From Minisyncoccota bacterium (GTDB lineage Bacteria; Patescibacteriota; Minisyncoccia; Phycocordibacterales; UBA12079): a stretch of 21,318 nt of DNA. The position numbers were made by a program, and so were the translations under genes. Below the pieces are notes generated by a model. The model was not told the origin of the DNA, did no database searches, and worked only from the letters and a program-made list of their open reading frames with translations. Location of the stretch: NCBI GenBank assembly GCA_023129575.1, contig JAGMBS010000007.1, forward strand, positions 1 through 21,318. The letters are read 5' to 3'. Position 1 is the stretch's first letter; every line of letters starts with the position of its first letter. This document shows, piece after piece, positions 2,991 through 20,678 of this stretch.

Positions 2991-3140
2991 GAGGTCCGAC
3001 CTCTGAATTACCATAAATTTGAACTTTGGCTACTTTATGCTTGAAGTCCAACCTCTGAATAATCACATATACGCAATCTTTAGGCGCTTTGTTTTGCTTT
3101 ACTACAATTGAGGTCGGACTTCTTTAAATGGTCGGACCTC
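2991..3140. repeat. cluster of 4 REP-like palindromic units, GAGGTC[C/G]GACCTC
   Basis: Units: gaggtccgacctc 2991-3003, gaagtccaacctc 3044-3056, gaggtcggacttc 3110-3122, ggtcggacctc 3130-3140. The last two lie inside the 3' end of prfB. Confidence 0.6.
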
Positions 3141-4003
3141 TTTTTATAAATTAACTCCTCTAATTCTCCACCCTTTATCACTTTGTCAATATCTCTCATT
3201 TCCACGCCGCTGCGATGGTCTTTCACCATTTGATAGGGATGAAAAACATAAGAGCGAATCTGGTTGCCCCATTCTATGCTCATGGTTTTGCTGATTTTTT
3301 TTCCCGCTTCTTTTGCCAACCTTTCTTCCTCTTGTTTTTTATATAATTTGCCTCGCAAGATCTCTAAGGCCTTTTCTTTATTTTGCGCTTGAGTTCTTTC
3401 CGAATCAATATGAGCGGATATATTTGTCGGCAAATGCGTAATGCGCGCTGCCGTATCTCTCTTATTGACATTTTGCCCGCCCGGTCCGCTTGACCTGGAA
3501 AATTCAATTTTCAGGTCCTCTTCTTTTATTTCAACTCGGTCTGTCTTTTTAAATTTTGGAATGACTTCCACCATTGAAAACGAAGTGTGCCGTTTTTGAT
3601 TGGCGTTAAACGGCGAAAGGCGAACCAAACGATGCACCCCTGACTCATTTTTTAGAATGCCATAAGCGTTTGCTCCAATAATCTCAAATGTAATGTTTCT
3701 AAAACCCTTGTGTTCGTTTTCATTTTTGTGCAAGAGACGGGTCTGCCAACTTCTATTTTCAATAAATTTTTTATACATCTGGAAAAGGATGCGTGAAAAA
3801 TCTTCGGCGTCCAAACCGCCCGCACCGGAAAATATCGTCATCACGGCGCCACCCCGGTCGTATTTTTCTTTGCCCTCTATTTCATCTTTTTTTAATTCAA
3901 TTTCTTTAATAACCGCTTGCGCCCGTTTTTTATCTTGCCAAAAATCCGCTTTTAGCATTTCTTTTTCAAGAATTTCAAGTTCTTTTTTTAAATTTCTTTC
4001 CAT
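3080..4003 (-). CDS. prfB: peptide chain release factor 2 with a short N-terminal domain; continuous frame with no programmed +1 frameshift
   Basis: SPF tripeptide motif (LSPFNANQKRHTSF) and GGQ motif (SGPGGQNVNK). The ATG at 4003 (MERNLKKELE) is chosen because the upstream in-frame stretch is the reverse complement of tRNA-Ile. Confidence 0.85.
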   Translation of the reverse strand: MERNLKKELEILEKEMLKADFWQDKKRAQAVIKEIELKKDEIEGKEKYDRGGAVMTIFSGAGGLDAEDFSRILFQMYKKFIENRSWQTRLLHKNENEHKGFRNITFEIIGANAYGILKNESGVHRLVRLSPFNANQKRHTSFSMVEVIPKFKKTDRVEIKEEDLKIEFSRSSGPGGQNVNKRDTAARITHLPTNISAHIDSERTQAQNKEKALEILRGKLYKKQEEERLAKEAGKKISKTMSIEWGNQIRSYVFHPYQMVKDHRSGVEMRDIDKVIKGGELEELIYKKRSDHLKKSDLNCSKAKQSA

Positions 4004-4077
4004 ATACCGCTCATTATACCAGAAATCTGGCGAAAATGATGGAAATGAGATATAATACAAATTGAAAATTTTAATAT

Positions 4078-4150
4078 GCGCGTGTAGCTCAGCTGGTAGA
4101 GCGCTACACTGATAATGTAGAGGTCTCTGGTTCAAATCCAGGCACGCGCA
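4078..4150 (+). tRNA. tRNA-Ile(GAT)
   Basis: Acceptor GCGCGTG/CACGCGC, D-arm GCTC-AGCTGGTA-GAGC, anticodon arm CTACA-CTGATAA-TGTAG (anticodon GAT), T-arm CTGG-TTCAAAT-CCAG, discriminator A, no encoded CCA. Confidence 0.9.
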
Positions 4151-4188
4151 CAACAATTCTTTCTACCAAAAAAATAGTTGAGTATATT

Positions 4189-4893
4189 TTACTGACAGCA
4201 ATACCATTTCCAACCGCTCTGATGGCAACCCGCGTTATAGGCCTCGCTTTGCGAGCGATAACAATGGCCATTACAATGGTATTTTGCGTAAGACGGACAG
4301 CAGCCGCTATTTACCCAACAATAACCCGGCGAACAGTGCCGGCACCCTATGCTGACCTGACTACCTCCGCCGCCAGAAGCGCTACTTTTACCGCTAAAGG
4401 TTTGATAAATGGATTGGCACATCCTATCTTCGGTATTTGGATATTTTCCGGTGGCGCAATGATAACTGTAAAGAACTAAGTATCCCACAAACGCAATAAC
4501 AACTATCTCGATAATTAAAGCAATAATTGAATGTTTGCGAACCTTAGAAAATTCGTCTGTGGGGGCTTGCTCGGGAGTCGGCGGTATTGGTTGTTGTTCC
4601 TCTGGCGCGACCGGCTGATTGGCATACTTGGCGAGTTTAGTATCATTCTCCAGATGCCAAACGCCAAACATAATATAAAGAAAAGTGCTCCAAGCTATAC
4701 TTACGATTAAATAATACAAGATTAGTCCTATCGCGATATAAGTAATATCTCTCTTGAATATATCAAAGTCAAAATTGTCGCTTACAAGCAAAAAAAATGC
4801 GGCCAAAACGACTAAAGATGGAATTATCCAAAGAATTATTTTTGCGACCCTGTACCACCGTTTTTGTTCTATTTGTGATTTTTTCATAGACAT
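4189..4893 (-). CDS. hypothetical membrane protein (3 predicted TM helices) with a Cys-rich C-terminal domain
   Basis: 234-aa ORF. Hydrophobic helices at residues ~18-40, ~52-75 and ~125-150. The last ~70 residues carry 14 Cys (CRHCSPGYCWVNSGCCPSYAKYHCNGHCY...GCHQSGWKWYCCQ). A Pro/Glu-rich linker is present. Confidence 0.6.
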   Translation of the reverse strand: MSMKKSQIEQKRWYRVAKIILWIIPSLVVLAAFFLLVSDNFDFDIFKRDITYIAIGLILYYLIVSIAWSTFLYIMFGVWHLENDTKLAKYANQPVAPEEQQPIPPTPEQAPTDEFSKVRKHSIIALIIEIVVIAFVGYLVLYSYHCATGKYPNTEDRMCQSIYQTFSGKSSASGGGGSQVSIGCRHCSPGYCWVNSGCCPSYAKYHCNGHCYRSQSEAYNAGCHQSGWKWYCCQ

Positions 4894-4975
4894 AATTTTT
4901 AACTATAAACTATTTTCTGTATAATATAATAATTTAACTTGAAAGAAAAGTAAATATGTTGAAAAAATCACAAAT

Positions 4976-5014
4976 AGACAAAAACCCCGCGAAACTTCGT
5001 TTTGCGGGGTTTTT
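4976..5014. terminator. bidirectional rho-independent terminator
   Basis: An A-run precedes stem CCCCGCGAAAC / GTTTTGCGGGG (loop TTC), followed by a T-run; U-runs are available on both strands. Confidence 0.65.
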
Positions 5015-5020
5015 TAAGCC

Positions 5021-5096
5021 AAATGAGCCAAATACACCATTTGGCTCATTCGGCTCTTTTAAAAAATCTCAAAAATCATCCGATTTTTGAGATTTT
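5021..5096 (-). terminator. two further tandem hairpins after the stop of the 5096..5914 gene: an 11-bp perfect stem AATGAGCCAAA/TTTGGCTCATT, and TCTCAAAAATC/GATTTTTGAGA with flanking T/A runs
   Basis: Both stems are perfect. The second directly abuts the stop codon at 5096 and is followed on the minus strand by TTTTTT. Confidence 0.5.
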
Positions 5097-5914
5097 TATT
5101 GTTTTTTGGTGTAACGGACACCTTTGCCTATATTTCCGATTTGAGTTATTTTTTGTTCTTTTTCTAAAATATCTAAATACCGAACAGCGCTTCTGCGAGC
5201 AGTCCTTAATAATTTTCGGACATCCGAGTTTGAAAGCTCTGTTTTTGTTTCAAAAAGCGACATAATTTTATCCAATTTTTTCCTTTTCCTCTCCTGAATT
5301 TTCGCCCGCGCTTTAATCAACAATTTTTGAACAAAATTAGCCGTGCCCGTCGGAGTGTCAGCGACGATTAGGGGATCAGTTTTATAAATGATTTTTTCAA
5401 CCATTTTAATCTCTGGTTGTGACGAAATTTCTTGAGTTTGCTTGTCCTCCGTAGCTTTCCTGTCCTTTGTAGCTTCAGCGGAGGAGGAAGCAATGGCGGG
5501 CTCAACTTTTGAAATTTCAGCGGAAGCAGATTCAACTTTTGGAATTTCAACAGGCGGTAAATTTTCCGCCTGCGGTATTTCCTCAACTTTTTGCTCTTGT
5601 TCTTGTTCAGCCGATTTCATCGCTTCAGTTTCAGTTTGCAAAATTTCTTCAACCTGTTCATTTTCAATTTTTTCTTCCGCGACATTCTCAACAACTTCCG
5701 ATTTCTCAACAAGAGGATTTTTTGGCTCCGCCAAAAAATCCTCCCCCAAAACTTCTTCATTTTTCTCAACCGCTAAATTTTCAGTTTGTCCGTCATTCTC
5801 CGCAACTTCGGCAACCTCGGCAACAGGTTCAACCACTTCCAATTCCGGCAGAACCGAAACAGGATTTTCTTCCGTTATCTTATTTTCCAAATTTTGATTT
5901 TCTTTTGGTGGCAT
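5096..5914 (-). CDS. acidic low-complexity protein with a C-terminal DeoR-like winged helix-turn-helix
   Basis: The N-terminal ~200 aa are E/V/P/A-rich repeats (EVAEVAEVAEN, PVEIPKVESASAEISKVEP). The C-terminus ...NSDVRKLLRTARRSAVRYLDILEKEQKITQIGNIGKGVRYTKK fits the DeoR-type HTH pattern (xxTxRRDLxxLExxGxlxRxxGg). It is a paralog of the C-terminus of 6217..6534. Confidence 0.6.
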   Translation of the reverse strand: MPPKENQNLENKITEENPVSVLPELEVVEPVAEVAEVAENDGQTENLAVEKNEEVLGEDFLAEPKNPLVEKSEVVENVAEEKIENEQVEEILQTETEAMKSAEQEQEQKVEEIPQAENLPPVEIPKVESASAEISKVEPAIASSSAEATKDRKATEDKQTQEISSQPEIKMVEKIIYKTDPLIVADTPTGTANFVQKLLIKARAKIQERKRKKLDKIMSLFETKTELSNSDVRKLLRTARRSAVRYLDILEKEQKITQIGNIGKGVRYTKKQ

Positions 5915-6180
5915 AGTTTAGTTTCCAATGTTTGTTATTGTTTGTTTTAATTCATTAAATTGTTCTTGGTTCATATAAATTTTACTGTTGTTTCTCAACA
6001 CTTCATAGCTAAAAAACCTGATATTCCAATTGCCCAAATTGCTATCCTTTTTGCTTCCTTTGTTAATCTAAATCCATTTTTCTAGTCGTCAGTTTTTTGC
6101 GAAGTCTGTCTTTCCCAAAATTAATCGTTTCTATGTATATATCTTTTTCTTCTATATTTTCCATATTTTTAATTTTTTAA

Positions 6181-6202
6181 TTAACTCAACCCGTTGAGTT
6201 AA
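6181..6202. repeat. perfect 22-nt palindrome TTAACTCAAC-CC-GTTGAGTTAA (CTCAAC-NN-GTTGAG family)
   Basis: Self-complementary. Lies 15 nt downstream of the stop of the 6217..6534 gene, at the promoter-distal end of the R-M cassette. Confidence 0.5.
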
Positions 6203-6216
6203 TCATTCAAAAATTA

Positions 6217-6534
6217 TTATTGCAAGGTATAAAATACATTTGTTCCGATTTTGCCGTGCTGGGTTAATTTTCCGTTTTTTTCCAATTCATCCAAATATCT
6301 TTCCGCGGTAGCGTGCGAAACCCCGCACAATTTCTCAACATCATTATTCGTTATTTTCGGCATCGGTTCCGCATTTTGTCCGCGTCCATTCCGCATTAGA
6401 TTCAAAATCTTTTCTTTATTTTCCCTTTTCTTTTTACTTTGCCCAAAAATCAAACACTTTTTCTTTTTGGAACCAAAATAACCCCCAATAATAATTCCTA
6501 CTATTCCAACTAAAATTAAAACTAAACAGTTCAT
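6217..6534 (-). CDS. membrane-anchored winged-HTH protein (N-terminal TM helix plus C-terminal DeoR-like HTH), 105 aa
   Basis: N-terminus MNCLVLILVGIVGIIIGGYFG is a TM helix followed by a KKKK stop-transfer. The C-terminus ...ITNNDVEKLCGVSHATAERYLDELEKNGKLTQHGKIGTNVFYTLQ is a DeoR-like wHTH. The start lies 6 nt after the methyltransferase stop on the same strand. Confidence 0.6.
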   Translation of the reverse strand: MNCLVLILVGIVGIIIGGYFGSKKKKCLIFGQSKKKRENKEKILNLMRNGRGQNAEPMPKITNNDVEKLCGVSHATAERYLDELEKNGKLTQHGKIGTNVFYTLQ

Positions 6535-6540
6535 ATTTTT

Positions 6541-7653
6541 TTATTTCTCCATTAAAAATAAATATTCGTGATATTTACTGTCATCAGCAATCCAATCATT
6601 TGTCCAACACATATTTGCCATAACATTTTTTTTATAATCTATCTCAACAATTTTTAACAATTTTCCTGATTCGTTGATTATATCGCTCAATTCTTGTTTC
6701 GTGGCTCTGCCGCCGGAACTATATGATAATAAAATATAACGAGCGTCTATTTCTTGAATTAATTTATGCAATGCTTTCATCGCAAGAAATTTTTTGTCTT
6801 TATCTTTTCTAAATTCTTCAAACACAGAAGCAGAAATTTTATCCCTGCTATCTATCCGGCGATTTACTTTTCCAAACACAGTTGGTTTGTCGTGTTTAAT
6901 AATTGTGGTCCAAATATGATAATAGGAAGTATACCTCACACGGCTTGGCGGCATCTTTTCATTATTTGAACCATACGGAGGATCTAAATAAACAAAATCA
7001 AATTTATTTTTTGACACGGTATTAAAAATATCATCACAAATTATTCTATGTCCGCCATTGTGATCAAAACGATTAGGTAACTTCAAAAATAAGTTATTGT
7101 AAGAACGAGGAGACCACTGCGATAAATATGATACATAATGCCCAAGAGTGCTATCAACCGAATCAAGCGCATAGATTAAACTTGTTAAAATTACACACTT
7201 ATCTTCCCATTGTAAATTTAATTTTTCGACTTCCTTCCTAATAGCGTCCAATTTTCGAGTGTTTTTTGCTTGAAATGGCCGTTTTGTTCCTGTCAATTCC
7301 GCTCCATAATGTTCGGTGTACCAACCATCATATCCCTCTAAATTATTTAGATGATTTATTATTTTTTGATAAAAACCGTCTGTTTTTTTTGATTTCAAAT
7401 AACAAGTCGCAAAAACCTCTGACCAAATTGCAATATCATTTGAAGTTGTGTCATATCCTAATTGAGCAAACGCTTGAGATACTCGCGTAGAACCGCTAAA
7501 TCCATCCAGCACATTTTTGATTCCGTCCAACCCACTCATTATATCAATAATGTACGGCAAAATTTTGAGTTTTGAACCGGCATATTTTATACCCTCTGTT
7601 TGTGGAATTATTGGAATAGGCGTGTTAAAAATATTTAATTGCTCAGTAATCAT
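6541..7653 (-). CDS. DNA N6-adenine methyltransferase, D12/Dam-like (alpha) class
   Basis: KYAGSKLKILPYI matches the Dam KWAGGKxxLL motif. DGFSGSTRV is an FxGxG-like AdoMet motif. FVYLDPPYGSN is the DPPY catalytic motif IV. The start overlaps the stop of the upstream ORF by 4 nt. Confidence 0.85.
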   Translation of the reverse strand: MITEQLNIFNTPIPIIPQTEGIKYAGSKLKILPYIIDIMSGLDGIKNVLDGFSGSTRVSQAFAQLGYDTTSNDIAIWSEVFATCYLKSKKTDGFYQKIINHLNNLEGYDGWYTEHYGAELTGTKRPFQAKNTRKLDAIRKEVEKLNLQWEDKCVILTSLIYALDSVDSTLGHYVSYLSQWSPRSYNNLFLKLPNRFDHNGGHRIICDDIFNTVSKNKFDFVYLDPPYGSNNEKMPPSRVRYTSYYHIWTTIIKHDKPTVFGKVNRRIDSRDKISASVFEEFRKDKDKKFLAMKALHKLIQEIDARYILLSYSSGGRATKQELSDIINESGKLLKIVEIDYKKNVMANMCWTNDWIADDSKYHEYLFLMEK

Positions 7654-8513
7654 AATGTTTTTAAATGATCAATATCTTTTTGCAAAATATCATTTGCCAA
7701 TTTGTGTCCTTGTCTGGTGCTATTTAACGCTAGACCGAATAATCGGACAAGGGTGTGATTGTGAGAATAATCTATCCATCCGTTTGTTAATGAATCAAAA
7801 TAAAATTTGGCTTTCTGAGTATGTGTCCACAAACCCCGTTGCAAAGCATTCGCGGAAGCCCCACCGTATCGAACTTCACAAATATAATTACCGTCCGAAT
7901 CAATAAACATAAATATCGGGTGTTTTCTTCCTTTTCTTTTTATGACACTTTGCTTTGAAAAATCAAATTTTTTATTTTTACCAACAAAAATAATCCGTTG
8001 AGTTTTTCGTATCGCTTTTTTGTGGTCAAAAATCATTATATTGCATCTCTGATTTTTTTCATCATAAATAAGCGGCATAATATTGATTGCGTTAAAATCC
8101 TCAAATTCTTTCGCCTTAAAAATTTGCCCGATTTGTTTTTTGTCCTTTATATCTCGGCCTTGCAATACAAGAAATGGAAATAATTTTTGACGGCTATCTG
8201 TTGAAAGTTGAAGAGGGCCATCACCGTACGCCTTTAAACTCACGGGAAATTCCGCTTTTGTTATTTCGTTTATAATTACAATATCTTCCTCGTGTTCTTT
8301 CGCTCGAAATTTATCTTTACCGACATGCATACTTCTAAAGTCATACATAAATTGATTGATAAATTCAACCATGCCAATTTCCGCCAAATCGCCATGTGTT
8401 TTATTCCCGATCAAACGCATAGTAAAAATGTTGGAAAGTGTATTAATTACCAAATGTTTTTGTTTTCCAACTAATAACTTAAATCTTGTTTTAAAATCTT
8501 TGTATGTTGCCAT
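7650..8513 (-). CDS. putative type II restriction endonuclease partner of the Dam-like methyltransferase; family not recognised
   Basis: 287-aa ORF translationally coupled to the methyltransferase by a 4-nt overlap. No similarity to any known family was recognised by eye, including the DpnII/MboI family. The role is assigned by gene context only. Confidence 0.45.
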   Translation of the reverse strand: MATYKDFKTRFKLLVGKQKHLVINTLSNIFTMRLIGNKTHGDLAEIGMVEFINQFMYDFRSMHVGKDKFRAKEHEEDIVIINEITKAEFPVSLKAYGDGPLQLSTDSRQKLFPFLVLQGRDIKDKKQIGQIFKAKEFEDFNAINIMPLIYDEKNQRCNIMIFDHKKAIRKTQRIIFVGKNKKFDFSKQSVIKRKGRKHPIFMFIDSDGNYICEVRYGGASANALQRGLWTHTQKAKFYFDSLTNGWIDYSHNHTLVRLFGLALNSTRQGHKLANDILQKDIDHLKTL

Positions 8514-8761
8514 AATTATTTAATTAAATTTTAAATCTTTATTTTCCTCTTTTTCAACTTCATCAATTTCTTCAATATCATCACGGTCAATATCCAATGC
8601 CTCCGCTATTGTCTCAAAAAACATTCCTTGTTCTCTCAATTCCTCGCAAGTTTCGGATAAGCATTTAATTTGAATTGTTATTTTATCCACAATTTTTAAT
8701 TAAAAAAATGATTAAATCTTTAACAAAGTTGATAATAGTATAGCATATTTTTAATTTCACC

Positions 8762-8785
8762 AACGGCTCAACTCGTTGAGCTGTT
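8762..8785. repeat. near-perfect 24-nt palindrome AACGGCTCAAC-TC-GTTGAGCTGTT, a copy of the 765-788 element
   Basis: 23 of 24 positions identical to 765-788. Lies about 250 nt upstream of the R gene. Confidence 0.55.
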
Positions 8786-8819
8786 GGGCAAAAGGTTCGC
8801 GCAAAGCGCGCAATCTCAT

Positions 8820-8869
8820 CACAACGATTTTCCCAAATAGCTCAATCGCTATTTGGGAAAATCGTTGTG
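8820..8869. repeat. perfect 22-bp inverted repeat with a 6-nt loop (CACAACGATTTTCCCAAATAGC tcaatc GCTATTTGGGAAAATCGTTGTG)
   Basis: Exact reverse-complement arms. No U-run on either side, so not a classical terminator. Preceded by a GCGC-aaa-GCGC mini-hairpin at 8799-8809. Confidence 0.6.
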
Positions 8870-8996
8870 GGTAACCTCATGCTGGAACCATATTTTGTTA
8901 AGTCCAGTAAGGTTATTTTTAATAGATTTATTTTATCACTTCGAAGGTCCTCGTGCACCTTTTCTTTTTTAGTTTTGACTTAAGACATGTAAATTA

Positions 8997-9611
8997 CTAG
9001 TCGATTTTAATTTCGTGTATCCATGTGTTGTTAGGCGAAATTGTTGAGTAAACAAAGGTTCTATGCTCTGTTTCATCTTCAGTGTTAGTTTTGTAGTAAA
9101 TTGGCAGGGCTAATGGGAATGATAAAATGTTTTCATTAAATTTTTTAAAATTATCAGCAATTTCTTCTTCTGTTAATTCGCCCATCCTCACTTTAAGGAC
9201 TATAAAAAATGTTTCTCCGCTTGCTAAAGCGATGGTGCCTAGTGATTTTTTATACTCAATTTTTTTCAAATCTTGAAATTGGTCTGTTCTTCCTGAAAGA
9301 GAAACACCATCCGGCATTCTTATTTCTTTGGCTGGTTGCCCACCATAATTCTTAAGCTCAAATTGAAACTCTAAAATCAGCTCTGTTTCCTGTGACTCAA
9401 TCCTTAAGTAGTTGCCTGTTTCTGAAAATTTTACAGACCGTGCCGATATATAAGGACGATTTTCTAACTCAAAGTTTTGTTGTGAAGCGGCAAAAGCATC
9501 ATTTGCAATTGTATTGCTTTTCCGAGATTCAACATAACTAAACCCTGATATAATCAAAGCGATTAAAGAAATTACTATTGGAATCCAAATTATATTTTTT
9601 TTTAATAACAT
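8997..9611 (-). CDS. hypothetical protein with N-terminal TM anchor (204 aa)
   Basis: Continuous ORF with hydrophobic helix IIWIPIVISLIALIISGF near the N-terminus. No recognised domain. Confidence 0.55.
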   Translation of the reverse strand: MLLKKNIIWIPIVISLIALIISGFSYVESRKSNTIANDAFAASQQNFELENRPYISARSVKFSETGNYLRIESQETELILEFQFELKNYGGQPAKEIRMPDGVSLSGRTDQFQDLKKIEYKKSLGTIALASGETFFIVLKVRMGELTEEEIADNFKKFNENILSFPLALPIYYKTNTEDETEHRTFVYSTISPNNTWIHEIKID

Positions 9612-9656
9612 TTTAATCTATTTAATACAAATAATTATAACGGGACCTCTAAAATG

Positions 9657-9743
9657 CGGAGAGGACAGGATTCGAACCTGCGGTGGAATTTCTTCCACAC
9701 TCGCTTTCCAAGCGAGCGCCTTCGACCGCTCAGCCACCTCTCC
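9657..9743 (-). tRNA. tRNA-Ser(GGA)
   Basis: The reverse complement reads GGAGAGG-TG-GCTGAGCGGTCGAAGGC-G-CTCGC-TTGGAAA-GCGAG followed by the long variable arm GTGGAAGAAATTCCAC, then GCAGG-TTCGAATC-CTGTC-CTCTCC-G. Anticodon is GGA. The type II variable arm fits Ser. Confidence 0.9.
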
Positions 9744-9797
9744 GTTTATATTTTAATTGTGTAACAAATTTTTTAAAATTTTCAAATTCTATTTTAA

Positions 9798-9886
9798 TTC
9801 CACCGCGGTCGAACGAGTTCGTCCACCTTTGCTTTGCTACGGATGAATGCTCCCAAGGTCTCATTCATCCGCTCAGCCACCTCTCC
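9798..9886 (-). pseudogene. degenerate tandem copy of tRNA-Ser: intact 5' 18 nt, then a hairpin in place of the D-loop 3' part and anticodon arm, then a decayed 3' half
   Basis: GGAGAGGTGGCTGAGCGG is identical to nt 1-18 of the functional gene. It is followed by hairpin GGATGAATG-(12 nt)-CATTCATCC at 9841-9870. The downstream GTGGACGAAC..CGTTCGACC is a degenerate variable/T-arm. Confidence 0.45.
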
Positions 9887-9904
9887 AATATATTTCGCTC
9901 AAAG

Positions 9905-10023
9905 ATCTCATATTATCGCCGCTTCCTTTCAGTCAGCGAACGGTGGCTTCGCGTTCGCCACATCCGCTTCGCTCCTGATAAAATATGAAGCAGTTCATAT
10001 TTTATCCACTCAGCCACCTCTCC
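9905..10023 (-). pseudogene. second degenerate tRNA-Ser copy, carrying a hairpin with the GAAGCAGTTC loop in place of the anticodon region
   Basis: The 5' end GGAGAGGTGGCTGAGTGG matches 17 of 18 positions. Hairpin GATAAAATATGAA-GCAG-TTCATATTTTATC at 9977-10006 has a 13-bp perfect stem. A downstream segment GTGGCGAACGCGAAGCCAC-C-GTTCGCTGAC is a degenerate variable arm and T-arm. Confidence 0.45.
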
Positions 10024-10049
10024 AAAATTATTTTAATTTATTCCATATT

Positions 10050-10694: not shown

Positions 10695-10719
10695 TTTTAA
10701 TGATGAATTTAATTTGCGA

Positions 10720-11714: not shown

Positions 11715-11716
11715 AT

Positions 11717-12373: not shown

Positions 12374-12455
12374 TGCCGGAGAGAGGACTTGAACCTCCAT
12401 GGATTGCTCCACTAGTTCCTAAGACTAGCGCGTCTACCAATTTCGCCACTCCGGC
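12374..12455 (-). tRNA. tRNA-Leu(TAG)
   Basis: Reverse complement: GCCGGAG-TG-GCGAAATTGGTAGACGC-G-CTAGT-CTTAGGA-ACTAG, long variable arm TGGAGCAATCCATGGA, GGTTCAAGTCC, CTCTCCGGC, A. Anticodon TAG; type II tRNA. Confidence 0.9.
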
Positions 12456-12597
12456 ATGTGTATTATTTAATTTTTAATATTATTGTCATATTTTCGGAAT
12501 TAGTGGAGACACTCCACTATCCCTATCGCCTGTTCCGCTCCGCTCCACATCGGCGATTTTTTGCTTCCCACCCAAGGCGGGCAGGCGCAAAAATCGG

Positions 12598-12717
12598 ATG
12601 AAAAATGAAGCAGTTCATTTTTCATTCACTCGACTAGCGCGTCTACCAATCCCGACGGTTCCGTCGGGACCCCGACTTATCGTCGGGGTTTCGCCACTCC
12701 GGCATGTGTATTATTTA
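12598..12717 (-). pseudogene. duplicated module upstream of tRNA-Leu: 14-nt upstream context, tRNA-Leu nt 1-31 with a 39-nt insertion in the D-loop, then a terminator-like hairpin
   Basis: TTCGCCACTCCGGCATGTGTATTATTTA is repeated (12441-12468 and 12688-12715). The 5' segment GCCGGAGTGGCGAA[39 nt]ATTGGTAGACGCGCTAGTC is otherwise identical to the functional gene. It ends in hairpin ATGAAAAATGAA-GCAG-TTCATTTTTCAT at 12598-12625, followed on the minus strand by CCGATTTTTG. Confidence 0.5.
12651..12689. repeat. GC-rich double-hairpin element, copy 2, inserted in the D-loop (between GCGAA and ATTGGTA) of the duplicated tRNA-Leu 5' segment
   Basis: CCCGACGG-TT-CCGTCGGG is a perfect 8-bp stem. CCCCGAC-TTAT-CGTCGGGG is a 7-bp stem. 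The intact tRNA-Leu 160 nt away lacks the insertion. Copy 1 at 1151-1188 also sits immediately 5' of ATTGGTA. Confidence 0.55.
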
Positions 12718-12760
12718 CAAAATGATACCAAAATTTTACCAAAAACACCAATTTTTTGTT

Positions 12761-12796
12761 AGTACTCCGACTACTCAATTGAGTAGTCGGAGTACT
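12761..12796. promoter_or_regulatory. perfect 36-nt palindrome AGTACTCCGACTACTCAA|TTGAGTAGTCGGAGTACT, 28 nt upstream of the -35 box
   Basis: Exact reverse-complement halves. Centred about 75 nt upstream of the predicted transcription start of the SPFH operon. A candidate operator for a dimeric regulator, or a long hairpin. Confidence 0.55.
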
Positions 12797-12852: not shown

Positions 12853-12914
12853 TGCGGGCAGATAGTTTGAGTTTCCCTCTTTTGGGTTTGAGGAAAATTC
12901 TTTGACAATTAAAT

Positions 12915-12959: not shown

Positions 12960-13034
12960 ATGAACAAAAAAACAAAAATCATTTTTGATTGAAAGCCCTA
13001 ATCACCCTTTGGGTGACGGGCAAAGGAGGAAAAA

Positions 13035-14177
13035 ATGGAAAATCAAAATCAGGACAGGAAAAAGGAACTCCAGCACAAATTGGAGGAGGCAAAGAGAGAA
13101 CGAAACAAGAAACAAAAAGCGGAAAAACTTCGGCTCAGATTGGAGTTGGCAGAAATGAAAAAGAAGGCGAGAAAAAAGGAAAAGGAGGAGAAAAAAGAAA
13201 AGAAACATTGGTGGACTTCTGATATTACAAAACAATTGTCCTCTTTTGTTGTCGGGTTTTTCTTTAACTGGATTATTGGAGGATGGACCGCAAGTTTGGT
13301 AAAAAACTGGTCTGCTCAATATGTAGCCCCAGGTTATGACACGGTTATCTACTGGATTGCGTTTGCTATTTTTGTAATTTATTTCGGCTATTATGGAATT
13401 GGAAAATTGAAAGAGTTTTGGAATGGCGTGCCTACCATATTGGGGCGACCAATTTCATGGTACATAATTCCCAGCGGGTTATTTTGGCAATTGCCATGGC
13501 CTTGGATGGGGTTTATGCCTGTGTTCATAGGGCAACGAGATTTAGATATTAAACCGGACAAAACTTTGTCGCGAGATAATATTGAAATAGGCATAGACGC
13601 TCAAATTCAAGCGAGGGTTACGGAGCCTTACAAGCACGCCAGCGTGGAAAATCCGGACGAAGCACTCAAAACACTCTCCAAAAGAAATATTCGTATCCTT
13701 GTAAACACGAAAGGATATAGAGCCATGCCCGGACAGAAACAACAATTTTCTAGAAATTTAGAACAGGGGGTGCCGGAACTGCCTATATTTGATGATGACG
13801 GCAATCCAGCCGGGACGGAAGAACTAAAATCAGTCAAGGAAGAAGCGGCGATGTGGGGATATAAAGATGGCATTGATAAATGCATGATCAACAATATTAC
13901 CTTGCCGGAAGAACTTCTAAAGGAAATTATCAAAGAGGAGAAAGAACAAATTCAGACAAGGTATGAACAAGTCCAACATGATTTGTTTCTTGTTTTGCTT
14001 GGAGCGGGAGATATTAATGAGGGTAGAGAAGCTTTTTTGAAAATGATTCCCGAGGAACGAGCGAAAAATATTCAGGCGGAACGAGACAAAAGAACGGTCA
14101 TTACCATTGACGGCAATGCCGGTGATTTCACAAAAGGTGGAGTTGGTGCAGCCGCAATGAAAGGAGGCGGAAAATGA
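13035..14177 (+). CDS. SPFH/band-7 (stomatin/prohibitin-like) membrane protein with a K/E-rich coiled-coil N-terminus
   Basis: Strong RBS AAAGGAGGA 6 nt before the ATG. The N-terminal 57 aa are highly charged. Hydrophobic segments follow. The SPFH core (...GVPTILGRPISWYIIPSGLFWQLPW...IDAQIQARVTEPYKHASVENPDEALKTLSKRNIRILVNTKGY) matches the band-7 pattern. Confidence 0.7.
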   Translation: MENQNQDRKKELQHKLEEAKRERNKKQKAEKLRLRLELAEMKKKARKKEKEEKKEKKHWWTSDITKQLSSFVVGFFFNWIIGGWTASLVKNWSAQYVAPGYDTVIYWIAFAIFVIYFGYYGIGKLKEFWNGVPTILGRPISWYIIPSGLFWQLPWPWMGFMPVFIGQRDLDIKPDKTLSRDNIEIGIDAQIQARVTEPYKHASVENPDEALKTLSKRNIRILVNTKGYRAMPGQKQQFSRNLEQGVPELPIFDDDGNPAGTEELKSVKEEAAMWGYKDGIDKCMINNITLPEELLKEIIKEEKEQIQTRYEQVQHDLFLVLLGAGDINEGREAFLKMIPEERAKNIQAERDKRTVITIDGNAGDFTKGGVGAAAMKGGGK

Positions 14178-14599: not shown

Positions 14600-14612
14600 A
14601 CCCAGACGAAAA

Positions 14613-14646
14613 GCGGAAAATGTCGCAGACATTTTCCGCTTTTTTC
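14613..14646 (+). terminator. rho-independent terminator of the SPFH-NfeD operon
   Basis: 12-bp perfect stem GCGGAAAATGTC / GACATTTTCCGC, loop GCA, then TTTTTT. Confidence 0.8.
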
Positions 14647-14672
14647 TTTGTGAAAAATAATTATAACTTTAA

Positions 14673-14900
14673 AAGAGGTTTGACCTTGATAGTGACGCTA
14701 AAAGAAGTCCGACCCCAATTGTGGTGCTACAAGAGGTCCGACCTAAATGGTGGTTTAATAAAGTTTGGTGTGTAAGGAATTATTATAGTTTAAGTTAATA
14801 GGTCGGACCTCGAGTGGCTAAACAATTATGCTTTGCATAAGTTAAGAGGTCGGACTTCATAAACACCGCACTTCAGTAACAATTCAGAGGTCGAACCTCG
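14673..14900. repeat. cluster of 6 REP-like units (GAGGTC[C/G]GACCTC family)
   Basis: Units: gaggtttgacct 14675-14686, aagaagtccgacc 14702-14714, aagaggtccgacct 14731-14744, ggtcggacctcg 14801-14812, aagaggtcggacttc 14844-14858, cagaggtcgaacctcg 14885-14900. The first three and last three are in inverted orientation. Confidence 0.65.
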
Positions 14901-14902
14901 TC

Positions 14903-15277
14903 CTAAACTCCAGTCCCTAAACTCGTGATTGTTCCGCTTATGACAGTTGACAATAATTGCGCTCCCAGTAACACAATTATTCCAATTATTGTCCACATTA
15001 AAGTATTTCTGGCTTCTTTTAATTTTTCGGGGTTGCCGCGCGCCTTCACAAAAAGAAAACCGCTATAAATAATCGCTAAAATAGCAAGTGGGGCGGCTAT
15101 TATTATTATAACGCCCAAAATACTATTTATTAATTGGCTAATTGTGTTAACTCCGCCGCTTCCTCCCAGCGGGTTATTTAATTGCGTGATTTGTCCGTCC
15201 GCGCCGAGAAATTCAAATGGCAGAAATAAAATTCCTAAAATAATTAGATATTGAACTTTATTGAAAAATTTTTGCAT
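14903..15277 (-). CDS. TrbC/VirB2-like pilin-family small membrane protein (signal peptide plus 2 TM helices)
   Basis: 124 aa. Signal-like N-terminus MQKFFNKVQYLIILGILFLPFEFLGA. Two hydrophobic helices separated by FVKARGNPEKLKEA. It is a paralog of the adjacent gene. Confidence 0.5.
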   Translation of the reverse strand: MQKFFNKVQYLIILGILFLPFEFLGADGQITQLNNPLGGSGGVNTISQLINSILGVIIIIAAPLAILAIIYSGFLFVKARGNPEKLKEARNTLMWTIIGIIVLLGAQLLSTVISGTITSLGTGV

Positions 15278-15305
15278 ATAATTAATTATATTAAATTTCT
15301 AAAAT

Positions 15306-15716
15306 TTATTGAAGATTTAACAATCCGGAACTTTCGGCGCCGAGACCGAGAAGAACGGCTTTGACTATCAGCCAGGCGCCGACGACAAAAAACAATCCAA
15401 AGGCGACATTTTTAAATATTTTATGCGCGGTTTTTATTTTACCCGGATCGCCCTGGGCCGACAAATACAAAAAACCGGCGTAAGCGAACATCGCGGTGGC
15501 AATCGGCGCGGCGAGATAAAGGGCAAAGTCAATGAGATTGCCCACTCCCCTTACAAGAGCGTTAAAATCGCATTTATTTTGCCAGGCATTATTGACCCAT
15601 TTCGGATTGCAAGGGATAAGGGGATCGTTTGGATTATACATTGCTTGAACAAAAGACGGCAAAGTTAAAGAAAACAGAATTATTAGGTATTTTATTTTGT
15701 TAGAATATTTTTTCAT
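15306..15716 (-). CDS. TrbC/VirB2-like pilin-family small membrane protein (paralog)
   Basis: ATG at 15716 (MKKYSNKIKYLIILFSLTLPSFVQA signal peptide); the track start at 15725 is TTG. Same architecture as 14903..15277: ...AAPIATAMFAYAGFLYLSAQGDPGKIKTA... plus a C-terminal TM helix. Confidence 0.5.
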   Translation of the reverse strand: MKKYSNKIKYLIILFSLTLPSFVQAMYNPNDPLIPCNPKWVNNAWQNKCDFNALVRGVGNLIDFALYLAAPIATAMFAYAGFLYLSAQGDPGKIKTAHKIFKNVAFGLFFVVGAWLIVKAVLLGLGAESSGLLNLQ

Positions 15717-15729
15717 TTTTTTCAAATAA

Positions 15730-15808
15730 GAGGTCCGACCTCAACAATGGTAAAATAATGAGGAATGGCCAAATCTTGTGTTTTGTATAAGTTAAGAGGT
15801 CGGACCTC
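15730..15808. repeat. inverted pair of REP-like units (GAGGTCCGACCTC ... GAGGTCGGACCTC) bracketing a 53-nt spacer
   Basis: Arms at 15730-15742 and 15796-15808, with flanks AAGAGG.. and ..CCTCTT, could form a ~15-bp stem. Lies between the SBP-like gene stop and the pilin gene start. Confidence 0.6.
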
Positions 15809-15818
15809 TTGCTATAAC

Positions 15819-17105
15819 CTATTTCAACAACTCTTCCATTTCCGCGTCGGCGCGCGAAACAGCCTCGCTTAAATGTTTTCTGCCCGAGACGACTGATTCT
15901 ACCATATCTTGAAAAATTAATTGGACGCTGTCCGCGTCCGGATCAAGAAAAGCTCGCGCGGAAAGAGCGGCGCGGAAAAAAATATTTTGATAGGGATTGC
16001 CTGGCTCTTGAGCCAATAATATTCGAGAAACCGGCGGCAGCCCCGTCAAATTACTTAAATATATTAACGAATCATTTTTGATTAAATTCGTGGCAACCTG
16101 AAAAGCTCCCGTCATATTTTTGGAACTCTTGCTGATTGCCAAACCCCACATTTTTCCGAAAGTGATATTGTTCCGCAAATCCCCCGTTTGAGGCAAATAA
16201 GCGACATCAAAATTCAAGTTTGGATTTTTGGCCAATAAACCGCCCAATTCACCGGCGAAGCCAAAATACATCGCCAAATCGCCCGACAAAAACGCCGTTC
16301 TGGAATCAGGCAGCGCTCTATTCCAGGTATAGGCGCTTTTAACCGGATTGGAAAATTCCGTATAAAATCGCAGAGCCGATTCAGTTGAAGCCGTCTGATT
16401 GCGGGCGGAATCGCGCAAAGTTACGAGCAGATCTCCATTGTTTGATTGTATGATGGAATTGCCGGTTTGCATTATCATAGTGGCAAGAATTTCTTTGGCA
16501 TTCACAACATTCACAAATTCGCCCAGCGCCACCGCGCTTGTCAAGATATTCATATTCGCGTCTTTGTCCGTTAATTTTTTGGAAAGAATAAAAAAATCAT
16601 CCCAATAACGCGGCGGGTTGGCCAAACCGGCGCCGGTAAATAATCCCCTATTCCAATATAGAACCAGCGGATCAATCATTAAAGGCAGAGCCAAAATTCC
16701 GGTGTCAGACAAATAAAGTTCCCCTTCCTCTATAAAATAATCTTTGAAATCTCTCAAAGAAAAACTTTTATACGGAATCGGCAGGATTTTGTTCCGATGG
16801 GTTAAAATTTTTGATTGAGGCAAAAGAAAAATATCCGGACTGCGGCCTTCAGCCATGGCTTCCGCCAAAAGCCGGTCAAAATCCTGTTCCCCTTTTTGTA
16901 TATACTTGACTTTTTCAAACGATTTGTCTTCGTTGATTAAATTATCAACCATTCCCCCGATATATTTTTCGTTAATTGTTCCCCAAATAATCACCGCGCC
17001 AATCGTTTTACTCGGATCTTTTTGACCAAAGCCGGCAAACAAAACAACCCCCACTATTATAAAAAACGCGAAGATGGATGTAAGTATAATTTGAAATTGC
17101 GACAT
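15819..17105 (-). CDS. membrane-anchored extracellular solute-binding-protein-like protein (ABC-type SBP family 1-like)
   Basis: 428 aa. N-terminal TM anchor. Length and overall pattern are typical of a periplasmic sugar/solute-binding fold. No linked permease genes are present. The family call is tentative. Confidence 0.45.
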   Translation of the reverse strand: MSQFQIILTSIFAFFIIVGVVLFAGFGQKDPSKTIGAVIIWGTINEKYIGGMVDNLINEDKSFEKVKYIQKGEQDFDRLLAEAMAEGRSPDIFLLPQSKILTHRNKILPIPYKSFSLRDFKDYFIEEGELYLSDTGILALPLMIDPLVLYWNRGLFTGAGLANPPRYWDDFFILSKKLTDKDANMNILTSAVALGEFVNVVNAKEILATMIMQTGNSIIQSNNGDLLVTLRDSARNQTASTESALRFYTEFSNPVKSAYTWNRALPDSRTAFLSGDLAMYFGFAGELGGLLAKNPNLNFDVAYLPQTGDLRNNITFGKMWGLAISKSSKNMTGAFQVATNLIKNDSLIYLSNLTGLPPVSRILLAQEPGNPYQNIFFRAALSARAFLDPDADSVQLIFQDMVESVVSGRKHLSEAVSRADAEMEELLK

Positions 17106-17106
17106 A

Positions 17107-17637
17107 TTATTTTTTTCTAAAAATCAGGCCGTAATGATTATCTCCGGCGTAAATATCTTTTTCATAATCAAAACCGTTTTCCATAAAAAGTTTTTTAACT
17201 GTCTCGGGAGAAACAACCTGTTCTTCCGCCGGTCCTAAACCGCCAAAGGAACCCGCCCACTCTATAAAAAGCACCCGCCTGTTTGGTTTTAAAATGCGAT
17301 ATGTTTCTTTAATCAAATTTTCTTTTTCATCCAATTGAAATAAAACATTGGAAATTATCGCGGCGTCCATTGACGCGGCGCCTAATTTTGTTCCGCCCAA
17401 TTTTTCAATATCGCCCCAAATCGCTTCAACATTAAATAAATGCTCTGTCCCCGCCAAATTGTGAATTTTTTCCAGTAAATCTTTTTGAACTTCCACCGCG
17501 TAAACCCGTCCGTCGCCTCCCACTTTTTTGGCCGCCGCCAAGGAATAAGCCCCCGAACCGGCGCCCAAATCCGCCACCCGCATCCCGCTTTCCAAATCAA
17601 ATTGGTCGATATTATTTTGTGGATCCGCAAAGGCCAT
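17107..17637 (-). CDS. class I SAM-dependent methyltransferase
   Basis: Motif I VADLGAGSGAYS, followed by an acidic post-I region and motif II-like LKPNRRVLFIEW. 176 aa. 1-nt gap to the upstream gene. Confidence 0.75.
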   Translation of the reverse strand: MAFADPQNNIDQFDLESGMRVADLGAGSGAYSLAAAKKVGGDGRVYAVEVQKDLLEKIHNLAGTEHLFNVEAIWGDIEKLGGTKLGAASMDAAIISNVLFQLDEKENLIKETYRILKPNRRVLFIEWAGSFGGLGPAEEQVVSPETVKKLFMENGFDYEKDIYAGDNHYGLIFRKK

Positions 17638-17710
17638 ATTTAACCAAAATTATAACATCTAACGCAACATTGCAAAACTTTTTCGGTGTATAAAGTTAAT
17701 GCTTTCTAAT

Positions 17711-20209
17711 TTACAAACAAACCAAAGACGCCACTTCGTCGCCGGCTCTTAATTTCATAAGCCGAACGCCCTGCGTTTGGCGGCCGAGCGAAGGAATTTC
17801 AGACAAACTAATGCGGATTACCTGGCCTTTTTTGGAAATTGCCACCGCCTCCTCCAAATTCTCGGAAATCACTTTGGAAGCGATTAACTTCCCTACCTTG
17901 GCGCTTAATTTTATGGTTTTAATTCCGGAACCGCCCCTATTTTGAATTTTGTATTCTTTCAAGGCCGTCTTTTTACCAAGCCCTTTACTGCCGATAACCA
18001 ATAATTCCTGATTTTTATATTTTCGGCTCACAATACAAGCGCCAACCACTTTATCGCCTTTTTTGCTTAATTTTATTCCCCGCACACCGCCGGCGGCGCG
18101 CCCCATTGCCCTGATATTATTTTCGTCAAACCTGATTGACTGCCCTTCTTTGGTCGTCAACAGAACCGTGTCGCCTTTTTCCACAAAGGACGCCGTTATC
18201 AATTCATCGCCTTTGGCAAGTTTAACGGCAATCAAACCGCTGCGGCGGACATTATAAAAACTTTCCGCGTCCGATTTTTTAACTACCCCGTTTTTTGTTA
18301 CCATCATCAGCGCCAACTCATTTTTTTTGATGTCTTTTGGCATCGCCAAAATGGAAGTAATTTTTTCATCTCCCTCCACCGGCAAAAAATTCACGATAGA
18401 TTTTCCTTTGGTGGCTCTTTTCCCTTCCGGTATCTCATACATTTTCATTTGGTAAACTTTTCCTTTGTCGCTGAAAAAAAGCAAATCGCTGTGGGTATTG
18501 GCATACAAAAATTTAATCACAAAATCTTCTTCTTTCGTATTAAGGTCAACCACCCCGACCCCGCCTCTTTTTTGTTTTTTAAATTCATCCGGTTTTATCC
18601 TTTTAACATAACCGCCGGCGGTCAAGACCAAAACATTTTCTTCTTCTTCAATCAAATCCTCCAACGAAATGGACTGAGCGCCGTGTTTGACAACCTTTGT
18701 TCTTCTCTCGTCGCCATATTTGTCAGCCAACTCCTCCAACTCTTTTTTAATTATTTTCAAAATTGCGGGCGGACTTTTAAGCAATGCTTTTAATTTTTTA
18801 ATCAGTTCTTGCGTTATGCCCAATTCCTCGTCAACTTTTTTCCGTTCCAAACCGGCCAATTTTTGAAGTTTCATTTCTAAAATAGCGGTGGTCTGCCGGT
18901 CGGACAATTTAAATTTTTTCATCAAATTCACGCGCGCGGACGGCACATCTTTAGACGCTTTGATAAGTTTAATAATCGCGTCAATGTGGTCAAGCGCGAT
19001 TTTCAAACCCAACAAAATATGCTCTCGGTCTTCCGCTTTACGCAGTTCAAATTTAGTTCGCCTGATTACCACAATTTGCCGATGAGCGACAAATTCTCTC
19101 AAAATTGATTTAAGCGAAAGTGTTTGCGGGACACCGTCCACCAAGACAACCATATTAAAATGAAAAGCTTCTTCTAACTGGGTGCGTTTATAAAGATTAT
19201 TTAACAGATTTTGCGGATTAGCCCCGCTTTTAATATCAAGAACTACCCGAATATCTTTGGTAGATTCGTCTCGCAAGGCCTTAATGCCCTCAATTTTTTT
19301 GTCGCGATGCAATTCGGCAATCTTGGAAATCATATCCGCCTTATTAACTCTAAACGGGATTGAAGTGATTATAATTTGAAAAAAGCCGGCTTTATTTTCT
19401 ATGATTTCGGCTTCTCCCCGGCAAATTATTCCGCCCCGTCCGGTGGAATAGGCCTGGTGGATATCTTTTTGATTAAAAATGATGCCTCCCAGCGGAAAAT
19501 CGGGGCCTTTAATAAAGCGCAACAGGTCGTCCGTGGAAGCGTCTCTGTTTTCAATTAAATGAATTACGGCGGCTATAAGTTCCCGTAAATTATGAGGCGG
19601 GATATTCGTCGCCATTCCAACCGCGATACCCAATGTCCCATTCAAAAGCAGGTTCGGCGCCACCGTCGGCAAAACAACCGGCTCTTTTCTCGAGCCGTCG
19701 TAATTGGGAACAAAATCAACCGTGTCTTTTTCCAAATCGCGCAAAAGTTCTCCCGCCATTTTTGACATTTTCGCCTCGGTGTAGCGGTGAGCGGCGGCGG
19801 AATCTCCGTCAATAGAACCAAAATTTCCTTGCCCGATAACCAAAGGGTAACGCAGCGCGAAATTCTGCGCCATTTTTACCATTGTTTCGTAAATCGCGGA
19901 GTCGCCGTGCGGATGATATTTGCCCAGCACATCTCCCACTACCGTGGCGGATTTTTTGAATTTGGCGGACGCGGACAAACCAATCTCGTTCATCGCGAAA
20001 AGAATTCTTCTATGCACCGGTTTCAAACCGTCCCGAACATCCGGCAAAGCGCGGGAAGTGATGACAGACATCGCGTAATCCAAATAACTTTTTCTCATTT
20101 CCGCGCTAATACCCATAGGCACAATGCCTTTCTCCTCGTTTTTTTCGCCGTCATTACCGCCGTTTTTTTCCGGTTCTTTTTCTTTGTCTTTTGTCATAAT
20201 CCCCCGCAT
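17711..20209 (-). CDS. gyrA: DNA gyrase subunit A
   Basis: [32 protein letters not shown]. The active-site region [13 protein letters not shown] GyrA-box-like QKRGGVG in the C-terminal beta-pinwheel repeats. Start is uncertain: ATG at 20209 or 20197; the track's 20230 is TTG. Confidence 0.9.
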
Positions 20210-20323
20210 TATATCATAAAAAGAATTCAATTACATCATTCATAACGCAAACAAAGGGGAAAATCGCGGAGCGATTTTTCCCTGTTTCAAACCCCTGGCC
20301 ATCATATGGCCAAATAATCTTAT

Positions 20324-20593
20324 TTACTGGTTAATATATTTCAAACCTTCTTTAATATCTCCAATTTTTTCGGCGGATTCATTATATAAATCCACAACGC
20401 TGTCTTTTATGTCTGAAATTGGGGGCAGCTGGGATTTTGTTTCCGTTTGCGTTTCCGCCCGGCGCGCGAAATTGTTTTTCATCTGGAATATCCACACCAC
20501 AACTACTAACACCATCAAAATCGCCACGCTCGCGAACAGAATCGTTTTTTTCCGGTCTCCCGATTTGTCTTGAAGATTTTGAATAAAATTCAT
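20324..20593 (-). CDS. hypothetical small single-pass membrane protein (89 aa)
   Basis: ORF with TM helix ILFASVAILMVLVVVVWIF. Sits between the PBP gene and gyrA. A REP-like unit lies 8 nt upstream of its ATG. Confidence 0.45.
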   Translation of the reverse strand: MNFIQNLQDKSGDRKKTILFASVAILMVLVVVVWIFQMKNNFARRAETQTETKSQLPPISDIKDSVVDLYNESAEKIGDIKEGLKYINQ

Positions 20594-20600
20594 AATTGAT

Positions 20601-20678
20601 GAGGTTCGACCTCTTAACTGTTATTAAAATATAAATTAGTCAACTTGCATCATCATACTGCTTTCGAGGTCGAACCTC
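20601..20678. repeat. inverted pair of REP-like units (GAGGTTCGACCTC ... GAGGTCGAACCTC) bracketing a 52-nt spacer
   Basis: Arms at 20601-20613 and 20666-20678. Same geometry as the 15730-15808 pair, with an unrelated spacer sequence. Lies between the PBP gene stop and the small membrane gene start. Confidence 0.6.

Follow-up and report, generated by a model that had tools for sequence, protein, structure and literature searches.

The closest described systems to the elements considered here are those of repetitive extragenic palindromes (REPs) and the REP-associated tyrosine transposases (RAYTs). RAYT genes are flanked by REPs and co-evolve with them (PMC2817692), and inverted REP doublets (REPINs) constitute the unit (PMC3116915). 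In the passages of PMC3733652 covered here, REPs are located 3' of open reading frames (ORFs), with occasional in-frame copies in repair and tRNA genes, and Patescibacteria are not mentioned among the eight phyla. The present analysis concerns a family of palindromes in a contig of the patescibacterial Minisyncoccota bacterium (JAGMBS010000007.1; assembly GCA_023129575.1), which was studied at its full length of 21,318 nt and is referred to below as the window. The family probably consists of small mobile DNA hairpins of the REP/REPIN type. We put at about three in four the probability that the palindromes are REP elements, that their inverted doublets are REPIN-like, and that both are cognate to a Patescibacteria-specific, RAYT-like clade of single-tyrosine (Y1) HUH transposases. 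By analogy, an enzyme of this type would mobilize the elements, and this genome would have, or have had, a cognate transposase copy.

The 13-nt palindrome GAGGTCSGACCTC occurs exactly at three sites in the window (2991, 15730, and 15796). Allowing up to 0, 1, 2, or 3 mismatches gives 3, 10, 13, and 15 sites, compared to means of 0, 0, 0.15, and 1.7 in shuffled sequence; the 13 copies found in 21.3 kb with two mismatches or fewer are far above chance, as is typical of REP and REPIN elements. These start at 2991, 3043, 3110, and 3128 (first cluster); 14704, 14733, 14799, 14846, and 14887 (second cluster); and 15730 and 15796, followed by 20601 and 20666 (third and fourth clusters). Those at 3128 and 14704 are among the two-mismatch copies, and a three-mismatch copy at 14675-14687 brings the total to 14. 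The degenerate pattern proposed in an earlier, sequence-only reading of this DNA gave 23 strand-matches at up to one mismatch, against 0.02 in shuffles. Twelve of the 14 copies are intergenic, every one of them after a gene 3' end, and the other two lie in the 3' tail of prfB. The motif, also written in hairpin form as AAGAGGTCSGACCTCTT, has the conserved stem core ARGGTY-N-RACCYT and, as read from its sequence, contains no stop codon in any reading frame. The features, named according to the reading preferred here (BIME, bacterial interspersed mosaic element), are as follows.

2991-3003: exact REP unit GAGGTCCGACCTC, followed by TGAAT; intergenic, with the prfB stop on one side and the rpsB start on the other
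3043-3055: decayed REP unit GAAGTCCAACCTC, two mismatches, also with a TGAAT flank, in direct orientation, 52 nt after the first unit
3110-3140: two decayed units, GAGGTCGGACTTC (3110-3122) and ATGGTCGGACCTC (3128-3140), both within the 19 codons that end the prfB ORF
14675-14899: BIME-like cluster; convergent genes enclose its six units, which are forward at 14675, 14704, and 14733 and inverted at 14799, 14846, and 14887
15728-15810, plus strand: REPIN-like doublet, AAGAGGTCCGACCTC, 53-nt spacer, GAGGTCGGACCTCTT; 15-bp stem, -16.4 kcal/mol, z -5.5
20599-20680, minus strand (opposite orientation): REPIN-like doublet GAGGTTCGACCTC … GAGGTCGAACCTC; -12.6 kcal/mol, z -4.3

At the end of the prfB ORF (…KKRSDHLKKSDLNCSKAKQSA*), the C-terminal tail and stop context come from the element. 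Within the six-unit cluster, the copies of the inner doublet (14731-14813) are spaced at the standard 66 nt, and 14668-14905 as a whole gives a fold of three nested hairpins (-42.3 kcal/mol, z -6.6). The doublet at 15728-15810 occupies nearly all of the spacer from a solute-binding-protein gene to the first pilin gene of type IV secretion system (T4SS) type, and that at 20599-20680 lies between the stop of a PBP/FtsI-like gene and the start of an 89-aa gene, its arms at 20601 and 20666 carrying a compensating T/A change. Folded as single-stranded DNA, the three doublets form stems of 13 to 15 bp (-12.6 to -16.4 kcal/mol, z -4.3 to -5.5). Full-length alignment of the three indicates conserved ends, AAGAGGTCCGACCTC-AAnnnTGGT … AAGTTAAGAGGTCGGACCTCTT (...AAGTTAA), and spacers of weak similarity (z 1.9 to 3.0). 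The arms do serve as inverted repeats, as in miniature inverted-repeat transposable elements, and a direct target-site duplication, another hallmark of such elements, is absent around 15728-15810, 14731-14813, and 20599-20680. A search of the window against Rfam returned tRNAs only, with no known RNA family over the clusters.

These results bear out several proposals of the sequence-only reading. It had placed at least 14 copies at four loci, and the 14 counted are all there; it gave the order at 14673-14900 as three forward and then three inverted, which is correct; and it described inverted pairs 65 to 66 nt apart, start to start, that could form a stem of ~15 bp, in agreement with the stems predicted here and with spacings of 66 nt (15730/15796), 65 nt (20601/20666), and, in addition, 66 nt (14733/14799). 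Two further statements held in part. The copies were said to occur only between genes, which applies to the 12 intergenic copies but not to those at 3110 and 3128, within the prfB ORF, or to a further copy of the same genome that lies in frame in tgt. The spacers were said to be unrelated, and they are nearly so apart from their equal length, conserved ends, and weak similarity. The arrangement resembles that of the REPINs of Pseudomonas fluorescens SBW25 (PMC3116915) in its fixed, short-spacer inverted doublets that fold as one long hairpin, in the better conservation of doublets than of singlets, and in its nested and clustered forms. It differs in spacing, which is 65 to 66 nt in this genome and only 16 to 41 nt in many other Patescibacteria.

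The evidence for a cognate enzyme comes from other genomes. In a metagenome-assembled genome (MAG) of Chisholmbacteria (JACOWY01; locus L084), an ORF of 221 aa (1242-1907) is a Y1_Tnp protein (PF01797, E 2e-10), with the motif 36 nt before its start, 23 nt after its stop, and, as a third copy, inside it (1692-1704). The motif recurs on five further contigs of the same MAG, so that a flanked gene and dispersed copies are found in one genome. The family of this ~220-aa transposase comprises at least 7,893 clusters, and its few source-named matches are mostly from Patescibacteria. The HUH histidines H84 and H86 (NHFHLL) and the tyrosine Y144 (RYIHLNP) are invariant in 23 sequences of the clade. 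Among 80 clade loci taken from metagenomes (L127-L206), a palindrome lies on both sides of nearly every transposase gene, its center at a median of 37 nt from the start codon upstream and 16 nt from the stop codon downstream. In the 70 loci used for a flank-sharing test, the two flanks share at least 10 identical nucleotides in 51 (median, 15), compared to 9 of 210 mismatched controls. The half-site consensus of these palindromes, A-R-G-G-T-Y-N, is that of the window's motif, and the outer arms are lineage specific. Members flanked by the motif itself are L084, L127, L189, and L192; in the last three, it is present (with up to one mismatch) both upstream and downstream, and also within the gene, near aa 150 in L127 and L192 and near aa 50 in L189. 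Protein identity and flank-motif similarity are correlated across the clade (Spearman rho, 0.33; reached in 0 of 999 permutations). Traits of this kind are those by which RAYTs are defined (PMC2817692). A second gene copy within 2 kb was present at 1 of the 80 fetched loci (L161).

An AlphaFold model of a clade protein (pLDDT 80) has as its best PDB match 4ER8, the Escherichia coli TnpA-REP bound to a REP hairpin (E 1.4e-5; TM 0.66, normalized to the target), with IS608 and ISDra2 close behind, and a profile search of the PDB with the sequence alone gave matches to ISDra2 (E 0.006) and 4ER8 (E 0.98) that were too weak for a placement, the fold comparison being the more informative. The transposase genes often carry their own lineage-specific palindrome in frame (29 of 48 loci, compared to 1.6% when foreign cores are used), with hot spots at about aa 50 to 64 and at aa 145 to 177, the second of which is just after the catalytic tyrosine. 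At another locus (L067, 4443-4455), a C-terminal transposase fragment starts exactly at an internal palindrome copy. We regard as possible, if rather doubtful, a broader proposal that the whole phylum Patescibacteria possesses a co-evolving REP-RAYT system whose palindrome is untagged and free of stops, and in which the hairpins within the transposase genes, in two fixed loops, are functional self-recognition sites. Speculatively, such hairpins might act in autoregulation, in self-cleavage, or as family-homogenizing templates rather than being tolerated insertions.

Several features are common to this system and the REP/BIME and RAYT systems of E. coli (TnpA-REP, 4ER8), Stenotrophomonas, and Pseudomonas (PMC2817692, PMC3479197): short palindromes mostly after ORFs, clusters with alternating orientation, and a Y1/HUH gene between copies of its own co-varying palindrome, with a predicted fold nearest to 4ER8. 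In contrast, the Patescibacteria unit is shorter and perfect (13 to 19 nt, with one unpaired center base) and is without a GTAG tag, the protein of ~220 aa has only remote sequence similarity, the core is common to distant classes rather than species specific, and the transposase genes often hold in-frame copies of their own palindrome. IS200/IS605 elements and their miniature derivatives belong to the same superfamily (PF01797) and likewise have hairpin ends recognized on single-stranded DNA. Unlike the Patescibacteria clade, which has the same palindrome on both sides, they have left and right ends that differ, and they carry tnpA, with or without tnpB, as multicopy units, whereas the palindrome here is dispersed alone.

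Rickettsia palindromic elements (RPEs) of the RPE-1 type are larger palindromic insertions, of ~100 to 150 bp, and to our knowledge no dedicated transposase has been identified for RPEs. As described in the passages of PMC3733652 covered here, RPEs are like the present family in that housekeeping genes of a small, streamlined genome tolerate palindromic repeats in frame; the window family is unlike them in its units of 13 to 83 nt and in its evident cognate transposase clade.

Comparison with three syntenic relatives (L207, L208, and L209; 78 to 85% GyrA identity) indicates where elements have been gained or lost. No motif copy was found in L209, in which the spacer between the solute-binding-protein and pilin genes is 10 nt, compared to 102 nt in the window, the excess being the REP doublet. 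Similarly, the spacer between the pilin gene and the convergent gene is 63 nt in L209 (60 to 63 nt in L207 and L209), where it is a plain terminator hairpin, and 303 nt in the window, the excess being the six-copy cluster. Conversely, the two pilin genes, 28 nt apart in the window, have a 65-nt doublet between them in L207, and L208 has a 27-nt family palindrome after gyrA, a site at which the window has none. These differences in presence among the four indicate that elements come and go at orthologous sites, and there is no conserved link of the elements to the pilin genes. The absence of elements at orthologous spacers, the flanked Y1/HUH clade, its predicted fold closest to that of a REP transposase, and the REPIN-like geometry support the REP/BIME-type architecture that had been suggested from the window alone.

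The DNA of this genome that could be read amounts to ~40 kb, consisting of the window and 19 kb of flanks (10 kb to the left, L123, and 9.3 kb to the right). The left flank contains two further copies, one inside tgt (L123, 13064-13088) and one intergenic (~20071), and no motif copy was found in the 9.3 kb to the right. The tgt copy is a 25-nt palindrome in frame, and comparison with solved structures of tRNA-guanine transglycosylase (TGT) places a 29-residue insertion exactly at the palindrome, between residues 112 and 113 of the Zymomonas enzyme. A second TGT gene, from Nealsonbacteria (L017, 1593-2741), belongs to a different class of Patescibacteria and is 62% identical to that in L123 (12718-13923); both have the palindrome in this same surface loop, which may represent either an old, retained insertion or a permissive site that was targeted repeatedly.

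A scan with the 15-mer AAGAGGTCCGACCTC, with one genome per species, gave at least 117 loci, many of which are single chance matches in large GC-rich genomes. Among the matches listed, 26 of 117 loci are labeled Patescibacteria, of several classes (Saccharibacteria, Nealson-, Chisholm-, Curtiss-, and Giovannonibacteria, and Paceibacterota), as are 14 of the 18 that hold at least two copies. The motif is over-represented in other Patescibacteria and present elsewhere in the same genome, rather than unenriched or confined to the window, the two outcomes that had been named as telling against a REP-like family. At multicopy loci elsewhere, the unit usually occurs as tight inverted pairs 16 to 41 nt apart. 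Of 19 pairs of neighboring copies (all loci among the matches listed plus the window, including 20601/20666), 17 consist of exact reverse complements, which argues that the unit is the pair and not a symmetric half-site. In other Patescibacteria, roughly half of the scored copies lie within long ORFs, and many pairs are in frame inside conserved genes, such as those for TGT, LigA, RecJ, and glycosyltransferases; LigA with such a pair contains 8 residues that E. coli LigA does not have. In-frame intragenic REPs in repair and tRNA genes of other phyla are already described in the covered passages of PMC3733652, so the in-frame copies fit the REP reading and add no novelty to it. The same passages describe GTAG/CGTC REP superfamilies, which resemble the present family in lying between unidirectional and convergent ORFs, in forming head-to-head dimers, and in occurring in frame in genes for DNA ligase, uvrA, and tRNA enzymes, the counterparts here being LigA, RecJ, and TGT. 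Tight motif pairs were also seen on contigs of MAGs labeled Gammaproteobacteria or Dehalococcoidales (L031, L058, L072, and L111), and these contigs may be misbinned ones from Patescibacteria. An adaptor or assembly-chimera artifact was rejected, as the same elements occur in independent assemblies of several projects and the reading frames stay open in conserved genes.

By analogy with TnpA-REP and IS200/IS605, a unit or doublet on single-stranded DNA would fold into a hairpin, of which the transposase would recognize the conserved stem core. Cutting and rejoining of the strand would then place copies at new sites. The copies that survive would mostly be those just 3' of stop codons or, given that none of the six frames of the motif contains a stop, in frame in permissive protein loops. 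In the window, copies have stretched spacers that would otherwise be very short, and one of them now forms the end of the prfB ORF.

The hairpins could instead be immobile RNA or DNA structures selected by the host, such as terminators, mRNA 3'-end stabilizers, or RNase processing sites. This explanation draws on the location of all four clusters 3' of a gene end, 1 to 8 nt from stop codons at 14903, 15819, and 20682, on the stable folding of the doublets, on a scan for terminator-like sequences that picked up two units, and on effects of REPs on 3' ends reported elsewhere (PMC3733652, in the passages covered). We nevertheless consider it unlikely. The hairpins are without T runs on the transcribed strand, the scan match at 20666 is on the noncoding strand for both neighboring genes, and a normal terminator is already present at 14608-14644, adjoining the six-copy cluster. 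Elements occur in both orientations and in frame inside ORFs, the same spacers in L209 are without elements and have plain terminator hairpins, and the distribution, including the flanking of transposase genes on both sides, would be left unexplained. The elements may nonetheless influence transcripts, and a role in termination or RNA stability may be a secondary effect that is compatible with mobile REP-type hairpins.

Two explanations in which the motif is a protein-binding or uptake signal appear still less probable. We find it very unlikely that a dimeric transcription factor uses the palindrome as an operator to control neighboring genes (the pilins, prfB/rpsB, and the 89-aa gene), although the motif is a perfect 13-bp palindrome of the type bound by dimeric helix-turn-helix proteins and copies sit shortly before both the pilin pair and the 89-aa gene. 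Convergent genes enclose six of the copies, and others are inside ORFs; the copies are found in both orientations and in nested arrays; the strict reverse complementarity of 17 of the 19 pairs extends to the asymmetric center, a match that a symmetric operator does not need; and the two-sided association with transposase genes has no place in such a scheme. Conservation of position relative to orthologous promoters, an operator hallmark, was sought in L207, L208, and L209 and was not found, the elements lying between the pilins in L207, after gyrA in L208, and nowhere in L209. The genome-wide operator that the sequence-only reading had kept as a hedge is accordingly rejected. It is similarly improbable that the motif is a DNA uptake sequence for a patescibacterial competence or pilus machinery, comparable to the Neisseria sequences with their inverted pairs after genes and lineage "dialects," even though the motif occurs in coding and noncoding DNA, in inverted pairs, and in many Patescibacteria with variable outer arms, and pilin genes are adjacent in the window. 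Those pilins are of the T4SS type (PF18895) rather than competence pilins, the copies are clustered and not of even density (the 9.3 kb to the right of the window have none), and an uptake signal would not be expected to lie on either side of one particular transposase gene, to co-vary with that gene, or to recur inside it in a lineage-specific form. As with the operator, the strict reverse complementarity of the pairs also counts against an uptake signal.

Other observations weigh against the assignment to a REP-RAYT system. Most window copies are decayed, only 3 of 14 being exact, and the divergence of the copies and the nearly unrelated spacers give no sign of recent activity. The unit is a perfect palindrome of 13 to 19 nt, shorter than the classical imperfect REPs of 20 to 40 nt, and neither GTAG nor CGTC, the tags of the REP superfamilies, adjoins the stem in the flanks of any of the 13 window copies. 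No Y1 transposase was detected by tblastn with five family members in the window and its 19 kb of flanks. The exact window motif is present at only 4 of the 80 metagenome loci, the sole NCBIfam match of the L084 ORF, REP_Tyr_transpos, scores 41 bits against a cutoff of 80, and by sequence the clade is equidistant from IS200/IS605 TnpA and TnpA-REP. Cleavage and transposition by clade members are putative, being proposed by analogy with the characterized enzymes.

The gene content of the window is typical for Patescibacteria, with two T4SS-type pilins (PF18895), gyrA, prfB, rpsB, and tsf, as well as four complete tRNAs and a fifth cut off by the contig start, and the same DNA is also found in GCA_030639765.1 and in a 106-kb ENA scaffold (ERZ23498859:scaffold_54). 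The motif halves resemble the Shine-Dalgarno sequence (GAGGT) and its complement (ACCTC) at 20594-20613 and 15717-15742; the two genes directly 3' of a doublet have no canonical Shine-Dalgarno sequence at -5 to -10, and the gene at 13035 has AGGAGG.

Other palindromic repeats accompany the family. AACGGCTCAASTCGTTGAGCCGTT, a second family with a 10-bp stem and a 4-nt loop, is dispersed in this genome and is also found in a relative with 85% GyrA identity (window 765-788 and 8762-8785; L118, 6119; L208, 12423). A third, ATGACGGACGTCSGACGTCCGTCAT, occurs at L123 15064-15088 and 17833-17857, both of which fill short intergenic spacers, and at L208 4265; it retains the GTCSGAC center of the main motif, with a compensating G/C swap in the stem, and contains CGTC. 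A perfect 36-nt palindrome, AGTACTCCGACTACT-CAATTG-AGTAGTCGGAGTACT, lies at 12758-12795, and one of its arms is identical to a palindrome just 3' of a Y1_Tnp gene at the Band7/tRNA-Leu locus of L209. At the orthologous locus the window has a 579-nt gap that contains no transposase gene and holds an exact copy, 29 nt long, of the tRNA-Leu 5' end (12441-12469 and 12689-12717), and it looks like a site that lost a different RAYT subfamily. The Y1 gene found there in L207 and L209 was considered as the cognate enzyme of the main family and rejected, since it belongs to a different subfamily and has different flanking palindromes. A 45-nt double-hairpin repeat is present in two copies with 87% identity, at 1144-1188 and 12644-12688, one ~50 nt from tRNA-Thr and the other ~190 nt from tRNA-Leu, adjoining the duplicated tRNA-Leu 5' end. 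The tRNA-Ser 5' end occurs three times at intervals of ~140 nt (9721-9748, 9864-9891, and 10001-10028), and the hairpin module GATAAAATATGAAGCAGTTCATATTTTATC is found at 9977-10011 and again by the tRNA-Leu region (12597-12631); these repeats and the module may mark past integration events at tRNA genes.

Work on REP/REPIN-RAYT systems has dealt almost wholly with Proteobacteria and a few other phyla, and repeats are not expected in the ultrasmall, streamlined genomes of Patescibacteria. A search of the literature library for RAYT or REPIN together with Patescibacteria or the candidate phyla radiation found no relevant paper in that library, and the most suitable reading of the family is that of an established type of element for which the literature searched has no description in Patescibacteria. 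For annotation, the motif should not be taken for an operator or a Shine-Dalgarno site. If the assignment is correct, it would account for puzzling long spacers and for short insertions in release factor 2, TGT, LigA, and RecJ, and would provide a sequence marker that may flag Patescibacteria contigs binned with other phyla. It would also offer thousands of natural transposase-hairpin pairs in which to study how Y1 enzymes read hairpins.

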